From Thermoplasmatales archaeon SW_10_69_26 (GTDB lineage Archaea > Thermoplasmatota > SW-10-69-26), in NCBI GenBank assembly GCA_003009755.1, contig PXUB01000012.1, forward strand, positions 6,770 through 56,948: a DNA stretch of 50,179 bases, written 5' to 3'. The notes beneath the pieces are model-generated. The model searched no databases. It worked only from the letters and a program-made list of their open reading frames with translations, and had not been told where the DNA came from. Numbering within the stretch: position 1 is the stretch's first letter; the number at the start of each line of letters is the position of its first letter. Shown piece by piece: positions 13,381 to 14,994 of this stretch. The translations under genes were made by a program, and so were the position numbers.

Positions 13381-13703
13381 CGAGATCGAGACCTCATCGA
13401 TGGAGGCGGTCGGTCTCTCCCCTCGCCGTCCGCCAGCGTCGAGCCCGAGCGATAGCCGCCGGGCAAGCGACGCTGGCGATTCGGACGGCCTCACCGGTAT
13501 CTGCCGTCGGCCGTCCTCGCCCGAGAGATCGGTTCTCCGCCACCGCTATGGACGCAATCGGTCCCGATCTCTCGGGAACCGGAGGGTCGGCCTGGCGGCA
13601 GCGACCCTCCGGATCCGTACGAACCGAGCGGTGACGCCGGTTCGTACTCTCCCACGAGACAGAGACCTCAGCTATGGCCTCAGTCGGTCTCTGTCTCGTG
13701 GGA
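13381..13703. repeat. Array of consecutive inverted repeats containing displaced copies of the aspS 3' end
   Basis: Perfect stems at 13431-41/13468-78 (11 bp), 13520-32/13564-76 (13 bp), 13579-89/13602-12 (11 bp), 13617-26/13638-47 (10 bp) and 13650-67/13686-703 (18 bp). Minus strand 13546-13578 encodes [10 protein letters not shown]. Confidence 0.9.
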
Positions 13704-14994
13704 ACAGCACAGCTTCCCGGATGTTGTGCAGGTCGAGCATCTCCATCACGATGCGCTCGATGCCGAGGCCGAAGCCGCCGTGGGGCGGCATGCCGTACGT
13801 GAACGGCTTGAGGTAGTCCTCGAAGTCCTCGGTGTCGGCGCCCATCTCCTCGATCCGCTGGCGGAGCAGGTCGGGGTCGTGGACGCGTTGGGCCCCGCTG
13901 GTGACCTCCATGCCGGACTTGCCGAGGTCGAAGCTGCGCGACAGCTCCTCGCCCTCGGGCTGGGCGTAGAAGGGCTTGCACTCGTCGGGGTACTTCGTGA
14001 TGAAGTAGTACTCGTGGCCCTTCTCCTCCATGATGTCCCCGAGCGCGTACTCGGCCTCGGTCGACAGGTCCTCGCCCCAGGCGACCTCTTCCTCGACGTC
14101 GTCGGCCGTCCAGTCGAGCGCCTCGTCGTAGGTGACGCGCGGGAACGGCGTGTCGGGGACGGTGACCTCGTGATCGAGCAGCTCGAGCTCCTCGGTGCAG
14201 TTCTCGTCGACGAAGCTCGTGATGGCGTGCACGAGGTTCTCGAGCACCCACAGCACGTCGTCCTCGTCGTCGATGAAGGCGACCTCGCAGTCGAACGCGC
14301 TGGACTCGTTGAGGTGCCGGCGCGTGTTGTGGCTCTCGGCGCGGAAGTACTTCGCGATCTCGAAGACCTTGTCCAGCCCGGTCGCCATCATCATCTGCTT
14401 GTACAGCTGCGGGCTCTGGGACAGATAGGCGGTCTCCTCGAAGTACTGGACCTCGAAGATGTCGGTCCCGCCCTCGCTGGCGGCGCCGATGATGTTGGGC
14501 GAGGTGAACTCGGTGAAGCCCTCCTCTTGCAGCCACTGGCGGCCCCCCTCGACGGCGGCGGCGCGGACCGCGAAGATGGCCTGGACCTCGGGCTTGCGGA
14601 CGTCGAGGAACCGGTTCTCCAGGCGGGTGTCCACGTCCGTGTCGACGCGGTCGACGACGCCCATCGGGAGCGGCGTCTGGGCCTCGTTCAGCAGCTCGGC
14701 CTCGTCGGGCAGCACCTCGAAGCCGCCCGGCGCCTCGTCGGACTCCTGGACGGTGCCCGCGATGGCGGCCACGCTCTCGCGGTTGGCCTCGACGAGCGTG
14801 TCGACGGTGTCCTCGTCGACCTTGCCCTTCGGGAGCACGATCTGCCCGGTCTCGGTGCCCTGGCGCAGTTCGACGAACGCGATGCCGCCCAGATCCCGGA
14901 CCTCCTGGATCCAGCCCGCCACGACGACCTCGCGGCCGTCGTCGTCGGGACCCAGCTCGGGGATCGCGACGCGCTCGCTGAGGGGGATGCTCAT
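13672..14994 (-). CDS. aspS: Aspartyl-tRNA synthetase, archaeal non-discriminating type
   Basis: OB fold [16 protein letters not shown] (the Pro is typical of ND-AspRS); [15 protein letters not shown]...[19 protein letters not shown]. Start reassigned to ATG 14994, downstream of a TATA-like TTCATAAA. Confidence 0.97.

Follow-up and report, generated by a model that had tools for sequence, protein, structure and literature searches.

REP sequences and BIMEs are extragenic, G+C-rich palindromes of bacteria that are dispersed downstream of genes in mosaic combinations, carry short conserved linkers, and are mobilized by RAYT. The DNA behind aspS in the Thermoplasmata genome studied here likewise contains mosaic, dispersed palindromes located downstream of genes and joined by conserved linkers. 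It differs from REP/BIME arrangements in that no RAYT gene was found, the stems are highly variable and conserved only at their bases, the first hairpin derives from the neighboring gene's own end, and gene ends are duplicated. It also differs from IS200/IS605 and derived palindrome elements: there is no TnpA/TnpB match, and a target duplication is present. Moreover, no reverse transcriptase was matched, and the differences between copies are synonymous and of several kinds, in contrast to the adenine-directed changes of diversity-generating retroelements.

Integrative elements may carry a replacement gene end and accrete in tandem, as exemplified by e14 at icd and by cis-mobilizable elements beside ICEs. 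As in these systems, live and displaced 3′ ends are stacked here, and tRNA and housekeeping genes serve as targets. However, recombinase, cargo, and a shared identical core are all missing from the locus, dozens of unrelated targets occur in one genome, and every unit has an inverted copy of its target. In CRISPR and casposon systems, Cas1-Cas2 duplicates the repeat upon insertion at a fixed array end. The aspS array would work in a similar manner, with entry at a fixed end, duplication of a palindromic repeat, and distal movement of older units, but there is no Cas1 match, the "repeat" is a locus-specific gene end, and hairpin cassettes stand in for the "spacers".

Insertion with long target duplication was reportedly described by Nobusato and colleagues in 2000, and to our knowledge this pattern has been known since then without a mechanism. 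As presented by Furuta, Abe and Kobayashi 2010 (PMC2853133), a direct target repeat of >30 bp, long and variable in length, flanks the insert, no transposase or integrase is linked to it, and an empty site is present in a related genome. The examples in their Figure 3 have 46-bp repeats overlapping gene 3′ ends, and the inserts are kilobase-size restriction-modification genes in bacteria. Compared with these cases, the locus described here is alike in its direct target repeats of >30 bp (33-nt copies; 41 nt in the relative G005 and 99 nt in G018) and in having aspS inserts without a linked transposase or integrase. It is unlike in that the inserts are gene-less hairpin pairs of 70-115 nt in an archaeon, the target is a gene-end palindrome, the units are serially stacked, and the old copies are peptide-perfect. 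Finally, template switching generates perfect reverse-complement arms in one step as well as multi-base "compensatory" changes, and its description concerns stems of RNA genes (Monttinen and Loytynoja 2022, PMC8794818). In the form given there, template switching alone leaves the cassettes, the direct gene-end duplication, and the synonymous-only pattern unexplained. A limited, non-exhaustive literature search found no description of hairpin cassettes with stacked spare gene ends.

The hairpin array downstream of aspS

The window (the whole stretch of DNA analyzed, 50,179 nt) carries aspS on its minus strand. The aspS product matches NCBIfam NF003483 at 555 bits (cut-off 353) and has the Pfam tRNA-synt_2 and OB anticodon-binding domains; its start codon is uncertain because the family profile match begins only at residue 57. 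At and behind the gene end, a 361-nt stretch folds into seven consecutive hairpins:

13672..15144, minus strand: aspS, non-discriminating aspartate-tRNA ligase; stop TAG at 13674-13672
13650..13703, minus strand: H1a, terminal hairpin; perfect 18-bp stem, 18-nt loop
13617..13647, minus strand: H2a, gene-proximal cassette hairpin 1; 10-bp stem, joined to H1a by GA
13579..13612, minus strand: H3a, gene-proximal cassette hairpin 2; 11-bp stem, joined to H2a by GGAT
13520..13578, minus strand: H1b, hairpin holding the displaced gene end; 13 perfect bp
13578-13546, minus strand: displaced aspS end in H1b, encoding the C-terminal decapeptide of aspS
13483..13516, minus strand: H2b, dispersed-type hairpin; 8-bp stem, 18-nt loop
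13431..13478, minus strand: H3b, dispersed-type hairpin; 11-bp stem with another hairpin nested inside; linker to H2b is GAAT
13381..13418, minus strand: H1c, third, decayed end-plus-arm copy; 6-bp core stem spanning 13417-13388

The terminal hairpin H1a includes the end of the gene. Its 5′ arm (13703-13686) comprises the aspS codons for FPRDRD within the decapeptide that forms the C-terminus in the minus-strand translation, its 18-nt loop carries the last codons and the stop, and its 3′ arm (13667-13650) is a perfect 18-bp inverted copy of the coding arm. An earlier, sequence-only reading had proposed a second aspS end, 126 nt downstream, that differs at 8 of 33 bases and in each case synonymously, and this is indeed what the DNA contains; the repeat search returned the direct pair 13540-13579 / 13666-13705 at a spacing of 126. 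The 33-nt coding copies sit within hairpin copies of 54-57 nt that are likewise 126 nt apart. The same search bore out that each copy has its own perfect inverted arm, with one pair of 18 nt separated by 18 nt (13650-13667 / 13686-13703) and one of 13 nt separated by 31 nt (13520-13532 / 13564-13576); the arms of H1b (13576-13564 / 13532-13520) bear the synonymous variants of copy 2. It also recovered the third, decayed end-plus-arm copy at 13381-13418, which aligns without gaps to 13655-13692 at 79% (30/38 identical to H1a), has amino-acid-changing differences, and has lost the stop. Decay thus increases with distance from the gene, copy 2 being intact in peptide and copy 3 changed and stopless, in agreement with the serial replacement that had been suggested. 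The units of the aspS array are too diverged for the array to be reported by Tandem Repeats Finder.

The structure downstream of aspS is far beyond chance. Its folding energy is -217.7 kcal/mol, compared with -163.4 +/- 5.4 kcal/mol in 100 shuffles of the same 361 nt (z = -10.1). An Rfam search of 12900-14000 at a permissive threshold gave a best score of 27.4 bits against a gathering score of 82, for a microRNA model that represents a generic hairpin. A search of 13150-13800 on both strands for intrinsic terminators, i.e., a G+C-rich hairpin plus a T run, found none; unlike such terminators, the aspS hairpins are not followed by a T run.

The DNA between the aspS copies contains only hairpins, with no genes and no cargo. 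These hairpins have relatives elsewhere in the genome: H2a on contig C40 (82% identical), H3a on C27 (88%) as well as C29, C32, C8, and C42, H2b on C3 (two copies, 85%), C45, and C1, and H3b on C22 (86%), C38 (two copies), C19, and C6. These relatives of single hairpins on other contigs occur in mosaic combinations. The cassettes of units 1 and 2 differ in type, each with relatives of 78-88% identity elsewhere in the genome, which indicates that H1, and not the whole unit, was duplicated.

Integrase-type elements (e14 at icd; tRNA-gene elements) classically leave a live gene end with a displaced one downstream of it. The array could accordingly be read as scars of such elements, each of which brought a replacement gene end and later lost its interior, and tRNA 3′ ends are also affected in this genome (see below). 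We nevertheless consider this origin very improbable. Both cargo and recombinase are absent at the locus, more than 20 targets would each need a dedicated element, and the inverted arm would remain unexplained; furthermore, the two aspS copies share at most 8 identical nt in a row, so that no shared core is evident. The idea of stacked scars is supported as far as serial gene-end units with the gene-nearest one working are concerned, while the proposed gene-end-targeting integrative element or HUH enzyme is not supported, the inserts being gene-less hairpin pairs of 72-115 nt.

Hairpins at gene and tRNA ends across the genome

The arrangement recurs throughout the source genome. With a crude ORF call as the gene set (1745 ORFs over 75% of the genome), 12 of 1737 stops lie within perfect stop-spanning hairpins whose stems measure at least 11 bp, compared with 1, 2, and 4 at three internal control offsets; for stems of at least 13 bp the numbers are 8 versus 0, 0, and 1. 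GA(G) and an H2-type hairpin follow in 8/8 of the latter, and because all eight already have cassettes, no naive target is seen. The 3′ end of the tRNA constitutes the 5′ arm of a perfect 9-18-bp hairpin in 16 of the 57 tRNA genes, and at tRNA-Gly the units are 134 nt long and 97% alike. Altogether there are 91 perfect stems of at least 13 bp, against approximately 11 in shuffles, and 99 hairpin chains of 2-6 hairpins each. Hairpin density is maximal just past stops (36 in the 25-50-nt bin versus about 10 per bin inside genes). The linkers GA(G) and G[AG]AT recur between hairpins, while the stem sequences are highly variable, with conservation at the stem bases only. Hairpins of the GAGACCG type number 35 in this genome, compared with 0-10 within the family and 0-5 elsewhere. 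Besides aspS, stacked units occur at C6:563, C10:11692, C17:35200, C32:105900, C40:34400, and C42:29697. A one-off, fixed duplication at aspS does not account for these data, because the process occurs at other genes, at tRNA genes, and at the aspS genes of relatives. The layout shared by aspS, other genes, and many tRNA genes points to an undescribed route of gene-end duplication. In metagenome bins, such hairpin arrays mimic attachment sites, pseudogenes, and strain chimeras.

A class II paralogue (asparaginyl-type, on contig C45) that also ends in FPR has no stop-spanning hairpin, and the FPR motif alone is hence not sufficient. A microhomology rule, in which the coding arm starts with TC and the inverted arm ends with GA before GAG, fits most generic hairpins; it was dropped, as only 6 of 15 gene- or tRNA-derived hairpins fit.

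The search for a mobilizing enzyme covered the 95%-complete assembly, in which repeats often go unassembled and zero matches do not prove absence. It gave no matches to TnpB (PF07282), to Y1 HUH/RAYT (PF01797; the control search matched 6 of 14 reference genomes), to reverse transcriptase (PF00078), or to Cas1 (PF01867). The search for integrases and HUH enzymes that the sequence-only reading had called for thus yielded no Y1 HUH transposase and three tyrosine-recombinase matches, all on contigs other than that of aspS (C2, C19, and C1). In view of these results, the process may arise as a side effect of replication or repair and not be an insertion in the true sense.

Duplications in relatives and the matching of arms

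The aspS downstream regions of relatives carry end-plus-hairpin units in varying form. In G005, three identical 156-nt units, each consisting of a 115-nt hairpin pair and 41 nt of H1, precede a cassette that belongs to a different type. The aspS tail of G018 is duplicated over 99 nt, with 4 differences in 102, and the two copies enclose hairpin elements of ~230 nt; G020 has three copies of a 59-nt unit. The end of aspS in L115, a metagenomic archaeon of 40% GC, is repeated without change, 123 nt downstream, around a hairpin-containing insert. In addition, a 113-nt block between the live and displaced aspS ends of G006 is absent from G019, which identifies an empty site, between genomes whose flanking genes are only 60-70% identical. 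A metagenome scan for a close strain of the source organism gave a best aspS match of 65% identity, and the species-level genome set has no second member of the source genus.

These data bear on whether assembly placed two strains' alleles of the region downstream of aspS one behind the other. The source genome was binned from a metagenome (49 contigs, 2.19% contamination), and the copies look allelic. However, the architecture is shared by the independent assemblies G005, G002, G006, G018, G020, and L115, and it recurs at many other loci of the source genome; moreover, assemblers join only through observed overlaps, and the unit junction, near 13576-13579, should therefore exist in the reads. 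An artefact of this kind is, in our judgment, highly improbable.

Four aspS hairpins from three genera have perfect 13-18-bp stems in which every codon difference is matched in the partner arm. Over the outer nine aspS stem pairs, 97% of the cells pair, with three two-sided changes and no one-sided change. The stems together comprise 1505 Watson-Crick pairs and 22 isolated mismatches, of which seven are G.T and three are A.C; as a strand-asymmetry test for RNA-level selection on oriented stems, 7 versus 3 is too few to decide. The perfect, Watson-Crick-only match between each copy and its arm is kept at the DNA level.

Collectively, these data lead us to lean toward a scenario in which two-hairpin cassettes were inserted behind the terminal hairpin and duplicated it, i.e., an insertion with long target duplication, with older ends being pushed downstream. 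The G+C-rich hairpin cassettes would represent a repeat system of this Thermoplasmata genome that occupies the spacers downstream of genes, and H1, a palindrome with the last aspS codons as its 5′ arm, would head a chain of them. New two-hairpin cassettes (~70-115 nt) would enter directly past the 3′ arm of H1, and the insertion would duplicate all or most of H1, a length of ~40-60 nt that takes in the coding arm, the stop, and the inverted arm. The gene would retain an intact end while the older copy is displaced downstream and eventually decays, giving the order live end, intact spare end, and decayed third copy. Arm-to-arm templated copying in replication (template switching) is suggested to keep the arms matched, possibly helped by selection for the hairpin.

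A wider formulation of this scenario is possible, although we hold it only tentatively and with some doubt. Here, undescribed gene-less hairpin cassettes would grow arrays at the 3′ end of any transcription unit, both protein genes and 28% of the tRNA genes. An inverted copy of the end of the unit would be made, and the resulting palindrome would then be duplicated, in the manner of a CRISPR repeat, by insertion behind it; either an undescribed enzyme or the replisome would act, and the spare, peptide-perfect ends could be swapped or promoted.

If the insertion scenario is correct, essential genes and tRNA genes routinely have their ends rebuilt in a small-scale DNA process, which annotation pipelines do not record and which never breaks a gene, because the end on which it lands is duplicated. 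It would then offer a testable case for the birth and DNA-level upkeep of perfect hairpins, and for the way in which a palindromic target might undergo insertion with long target duplication.

It is also conceivable that the array involves no mobility. The hairpins would then be selected transcript-end signals (terminators or stabilizers), made and corrected by template switching and multiplied by local slippage, and the aspS array would be purely local. The peak of hairpin density just past stops agrees with this, as does the failure to find a mobilizing enzyme in the genome. According to Monttinen and Loytynoja 2022 (PMC8794818), template switching is able both to make perfect stems in one event and to repair them. 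In a study of Haloferax volcanii (PMC7237163), 503 mapped transcript ends lie behind hairpins, a hairpin that was tested there ended 59% of transcripts, and for an AGATC motif the figure was 11-27%. The resemblance of the linker G[AG]ATC to AGATC, a likeness in sequence, is the sole link to this haloarchaeal signal as it is given there. The arrays may also define transcript ends in G+C-rich archaea without T-rich terminators. Nevertheless, hairpin relatives of 78-88% identity lie on other contigs in mosaic combinations, and neighboring units have cassettes of different types. G.U-type pairs are nearly absent, and no hairpin is followed by a T run. Moreover, pairing of a tRNA 3′ end with its trailer would be expected to hinder tRNA folding, which makes RNA-level selection unlikely for the 16 tRNA cases. 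We regard an origin without mobility as quite unlikely.

Synonymous divergence and reading frame of the displaced ends

The two aspS ends differ in six codons with the peptide unchanged, an outcome that was never obtained in 4000 simulations of eight random substitutions. A scan for downstream copies at the nucleotide level, blind to coding, detected 15 copies, of which about five are expected by chance (control count 5). Seven of the 15 differ from the live end in 27 codons, all synonymously, with a random-substitution probability of at most 0.0015 for each of the seven save one at 0.04; displaced gene ends that are identical in peptide and divergent in nucleotides are hence found elsewhere in the genome. 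Taken together, the 15 copies have 40 synonymous and 25 non-synonymous codon differences. In both cases with three copies, aspS and the gene at C6:563, there is a gradient of decay with distance.

The synonymous-only divergence suggests past coding selection on the spare copy. Under a simple insertion with neutral decay afterwards, most differences should change amino acids; the opposite is seen, so the insertion scenario needs a second process. One option is that the spare copy was once the working end in another lineage and that recombination joined the units; repeated allele swaps, raised in the sequence-only reading, are a live explanation for this part of the data. Alternatively, hairpin-promoted deletions might promote spare ends to the working end and thereby expose them to selection. 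If either holds, the locus would provide a case for why dead-looking gene-end copies stay free of amino-acid changes.

A stronger form of the allele idea dispenses with insertion at aspS altogether. In this form, a related lineage would have supplied the working end, its arm, and the proximal cassette. Recombination would have been anchored in aspS homology, with an illegitimate join where the resident hairpin has its base, and the resident end would have become the displaced copy. Import would jointly cover the synonymous-only differences, the match of each copy to its own arm, and the finding that, compared with other genera, the spellings of both aspS copies are derived. Over aspS nt -1200 to -600 the closest pair is G006 and G019 (0.89 identity), whereas their last 570 nt are at just 0.81, which hints at a recombination tract ending at the insert. 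However, this signal is modest, the flanking genes are just 60-70% identical, and no known allele qualifies as the donor. In relatives, the copies of the fresh cases are identical or nearly so, i.e., in-place duplication, and the junction lies at or within the hairpin 5′ arm, which random illegitimate joins do not predict. Import without insertion is in our view unlikely, and duplication by insertion behind the terminal hairpin is the reading that we retain.

The two aspS stops are 42 codons apart in the same frame, from which it had been proposed that the process preserves the reading frame. Genome-wide, this did not hold, as just 6 of 11 comparable copies are in frame. The 123 nt between the stops are without codon periodicity (GC1/2/3 = 0.66/0.68/0.66), and on these two grounds the in-frame spacing at aspS is probably due to chance. 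The in-frame second copy could also suggest recoding, in which read-through of TAG would give a 42-residue extension with the same terminal decapeptide. With the codon periodicity and frame statistics against it, read-through was rejected, and the chance that it occurs here is extremely slim.

The terminal codons of aspS are atypical for the gene, as had been noticed from the sequence. In each of the two copies, the last 10 codons have a GC3 of 0.50, compared with 0.95 for the whole of aspS, and the mean for the last 10 codons across the 1745 genes is 0.88.

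Hairpins at the duplicated aspS end

The product of the aspS gene (15144-13672, minus strand) scores 555 bits with NCBIfam NF003483 (cut-off 353), which identifies it as a non-discriminating aspartate-tRNA ligase, and it has the Pfam tRNA-synt_2 domain and an OB anticodon-binding domain. Its two closest relatives in public genomes, from Thermoplasmata and Thermoplasmatales archaeon MAGs, are 84-85% identical. The longest ORF begins at the ATG at 15144 (region 14976-15144), but alignment to the family profiles begins no earlier than residue 57-63, and the true start may therefore lie downstream. 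The window belongs to contig C15 of the genome under study (G000), a bin of 2.82 Mb in 49 contigs with 69% G+C, 95% completeness and 2.19% contamination.

The duplication of the aspS end with synonymous changes only, as proposed in the sequence-only reading, is real and statistically solid. The live (working) end and the displaced (spare) end downstream differ at 8 of 33 bases in six codons, all synonymously, and the peptide was kept in 0 of 4000 simulations of eight random substitutions. The terminal codons are atypical, as had been noted: GC3 of the last ten codons is 0.50 in both copies, compared with 0.95 for the whole gene and a genome mean of 0.88. The individual inverted arms and the third, decayed copy were likewise recovered. 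Together they form a chain of seven hairpins, in which H1 is the terminal hairpin built from the gene's own end, H2 and H3 form a two-hairpin cassette, and a, b and c denote units 1, 2 and 3 outward from aspS.

Hairpin chain after the aspS end, in minus-strand reading order
13703-13650, minus: H1a, 18 perfect bp; 5′ arm of FPRDRD codons, TAG stop and final codons in the 18-nt loop
linker, minus: GA
13647-13617, minus: H2a
linker, minus: GGAT
13612-13579, minus: H3a
linker, minus: TT
13576-13520, minus: H1b, 13 perfect bp; holds the second [10 protein letters not shown], 13578-13546
linker, minus: CGA
13516-13483, minus: H2b
linker, minus: GAAT
13478-13431, minus: H3b
linker, minus: 13 nt
13417-13388, minus: H1c, third copy, 30/38 identical to H1a, with amino-acid changes and the stop gone

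The process had also been taken to preserve the reading frame, a claim that did not hold up. The stretch between the two aspS stops has no codon periodicity and only 6 of 11 comparable downstream copies in the genome are in frame, and hence the 126-nt in-frame spacing looks accidental. The 361-nt array folds 10 standard deviations better than shuffles; within it, neither a match to an Rfam family nor a hairpin followed by a T run was found. A convergent gene without a Pfam family (138 aa) ends at 13219, and an imperfect inverted repeat (13203-13251; 19-nt arms, 74% complementary) spans its stop. Loops of 18 nt are common to H1a (13650-13703), H1c (13388-13417) and dispersed hairpins of the H2b type (H2b, 13483-13516), which agree in the first three bases, in the last two or three and in a CA at the centre; 13 of 18 positions are identical between the H1a loop and that of a copy on contig C3. 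This likeness reflects either chance or an ancestry common to dispersed hairpins of this type and the hairpin at the aspS end.

Hairpin cassettes across the genome

The aspS array is one instance of a genome-wide pattern. A crude gene set (1745 high-GC3 ORFs, covering 75% of the genome) was searched for perfect stop-spanning hairpins, in which the final codons supply the 5′ arm, the loop contains the stop and the 3′ arm follows downstream. Stems of at least 11 bp occur at 12 of 1737 stops, compared with counts of 1, 2 and 4 for three internal offsets used as controls, and stems of at least 13 bp at 8, compared with 0, 0 and 1. After each of these eight long cases come GA(G) and another hairpin, with the stem base G-N-A/C-C-G, and usually then G[AG]AT(C) and a third. 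This constant company (8/8) would tie the origin of the inverted arms to the cassettes. Moreover, at 16 of 57 tRNA genes the T-arm and acceptor 3′ strand themselves serve as the 5′ arm of a perfect hairpin of 9-18 bp, in most cases with the cassettes seen at protein genes coming next. A one-off duplication, the alternative raised in the sequence-only reading, is thus contradicted by the same pattern at other protein-gene stops and at these tRNA genes. Examples of such inverted tRNA 3′-end copies lie at C2:33058-33131, C3:294-365, C27:15537-15622 and C47:53291-53376 (contig:positions). Several of the tRNA-hairpin loops open with one common T-rich heptamer, and the tRNA T-loop sequence is similar to the cassette linker CGAATC.

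Perfect hairpins of at least 9 bp number 2543 in the genome and 1481 after shuffling; their density peaks 25-50 nt past stops, and 99 chains of two to six are present. In 53 hairpin-GAG-hairpin junctions, the first hairpin contains a protein-gene stop in 9, a tRNA end in 6 and neither in 38, many of these 38 being internal array units or displaced copies. Single hairpins of the aspS array have relatives of 77-88% identity on other contigs, where they are combined differently; the cassettes are therefore dispersed and mosaic. Distinct from them is a second dispersed family, whose members combine an A+T-rich core with a C or G run, represented in the window by a 91-nt tandem repeat (9055-9430; four copies, 91% alike) and further copies on C43, C5 and C45.

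Related genomes and the spare ends

Comparison of the regions downstream of aspS in relatives, as had been proposed, revealed fresh duplication events in several genomes. Among 30 related genomes, 23 have an assessable aspS end, with a perfect stop-spanning hairpin of at least 11 bp in three and a downstream end copy in four. The 66 diverse archaeal genomes have 0 hairpins and 0 copies, and 68 metagenome contigs have 0 hairpins and one copy; a metagenome scan yielded no close strains of G000. In the family-level relatives G005 and G002 the hairpin is placed as in G000 and followed by one with the same stem base; it was not found in two members of another genus (G001, G004). Stems are perfect over 13-18 bp in all four aspS hairpins (two in G000, one each in G005 and G002), and the partner arm mirrors every codon change of the coding arm, whether synonymous or amino-acid-changing. 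Over the nine outer unambiguous pairs, 97% of cells are paired; changes affect both partners in three pairs and a single partner in none. With four sequences, this co-variation is clean, albeit statistically weak.

In G005, three identical 156-nt units each join a 115-nt hairpin pair to 41 nt from H1, namely some of the coding arm, the stop-bearing loop and the inverted arm in full; the cassette distal to these units belongs to a different type. A 99-nt aspS tail is duplicated in G018 (4 differences in 102), an internal 54-nt fragment in G014, and 59-nt units are present in three copies in G020. In G006, a 113-nt block separates a recoded live end from a displaced end in genus-typical spelling; its congener G019 has an empty site. 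The event on an unrelated archaeal metagenome contig (L115, about 40% G+C; around 1567-1750) is of the same kind as in G000: an exact repeat of the aspS end lies 123 nt downstream, and the insert between the copies contains a hairpin.

Within G000, the suggested scan for peptide-identical, nucleotide-divergent ends (last seven residues and stop) found downstream copies at 10 of 1745 genes and at 1 in the control. With coding ignored (at least 22 of 30 bases identical), 15 copies were found, compared with 5 in the control. Their differing codons, 40 synonymous and 25 non-synonymous, divide bimodally. In seven copies (aspS and the gene ends C32:105900, C22:44964, C40:34400, C17:35200, C6:563 and C10:11692) all 27 are synonymous, with a random-substitution chance of at most 0.0015 each, except C22 (0.04). 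The others are decayed, have their 5′ boundary inside the compared window or are likely chance matches at 495-775 nt. Of the copies read through (C42:29697, C6:563 and C17:35200), each has a hairpin to itself, as at aspS, with an arm that follows its particular spelling. At both three-copy loci (aspS, C6:563) it is the distal copy that has decayed.

Neutral decay of a spare end should give mostly amino-acid changes, and the seven copies show none. Moreover, outgroup comparison suggests that both aspS copies have derived synonymous spellings. Coding selection must therefore have acted on the spare end, and the pattern of selection is genuinely puzzling. Two explanations remain. The units could be working ends of different lineages joined by recombination; in support of this, G006 and G019 are the closest pair mid-aspS (identity 0.89) but not over the last 570 nt (0.81), a drop before the stacked end that possibly marks a recombination tract. 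Alternatively, spare ends could be selected indirectly, in that hairpin-promoted deletions occasionally turn them into the working end, for which rare promotion would be enough given very large populations.

Proposed cassette entry and possible targeting of aspS

The unit 1 and unit 2 cassettes in G000 are of different types, each nearer to copies elsewhere than to the other. This points to H1, rather than the whole unit, as the duplicated entity, in agreement with the fresh cases in relatives. We accordingly read the array as follows: a two-hairpin cassette would repeatedly enter immediately downstream of the terminal palindrome's 3′ arm, and each entry would duplicate the palindrome, i.e., an insertion with long target duplication. 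Such insertion is described for restriction-modification genes, with a mechanism lacking (PMC2853133). Together with palindromic mosaic repeats, it is the known kind nearest to the aspS array. CRISPR arrays grow by repeat duplication at the leader end, which the growth of the aspS array formally resembles; however, Cas1 was not found in G000. Nor did the search of this 95% complete assembly find an HUH transposase, TnpB or reverse transcriptase. Of the interpretation first offered, the serial stack with templated arms is kept, and the integrase or HUH element is dropped along with frame preservation.

The stems are near-purely Watson-Crick (1505 pairs, 22 isolated mismatches), and the near absence of G.T (7) and A.C (3) speaks for DNA-level templating over RNA-level compensatory evolution. 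Replication template switching, which can create and repair such stems (PMC8794818), may have made and repaired the arms.

The heptamer GAGACCG or its complement lies wholly inside perfect-hairpin arms 88 times, compared with a mean of 4.2 and a maximum of 16 for 40 7-mers of the same composition. G000 contains 35 hairpins of the form GAGACCG...CGGTCTC, compared with 0-10 in its family-level relatives and 0-5 in the remaining genomes (reversed control pattern, 0-3). The Arg-Asp-Arg codons of the conserved aspS end read GAGACCG exactly if the first Arg codon ends in A. This link, a correlation, may account for the atypical aspS codons and the repeated hits on aspS in this class. A further tandem cassette array in the family relative G005 (C326:1440-1714) consists of three GAGACCG-type hairpins at 118-nt spacing.
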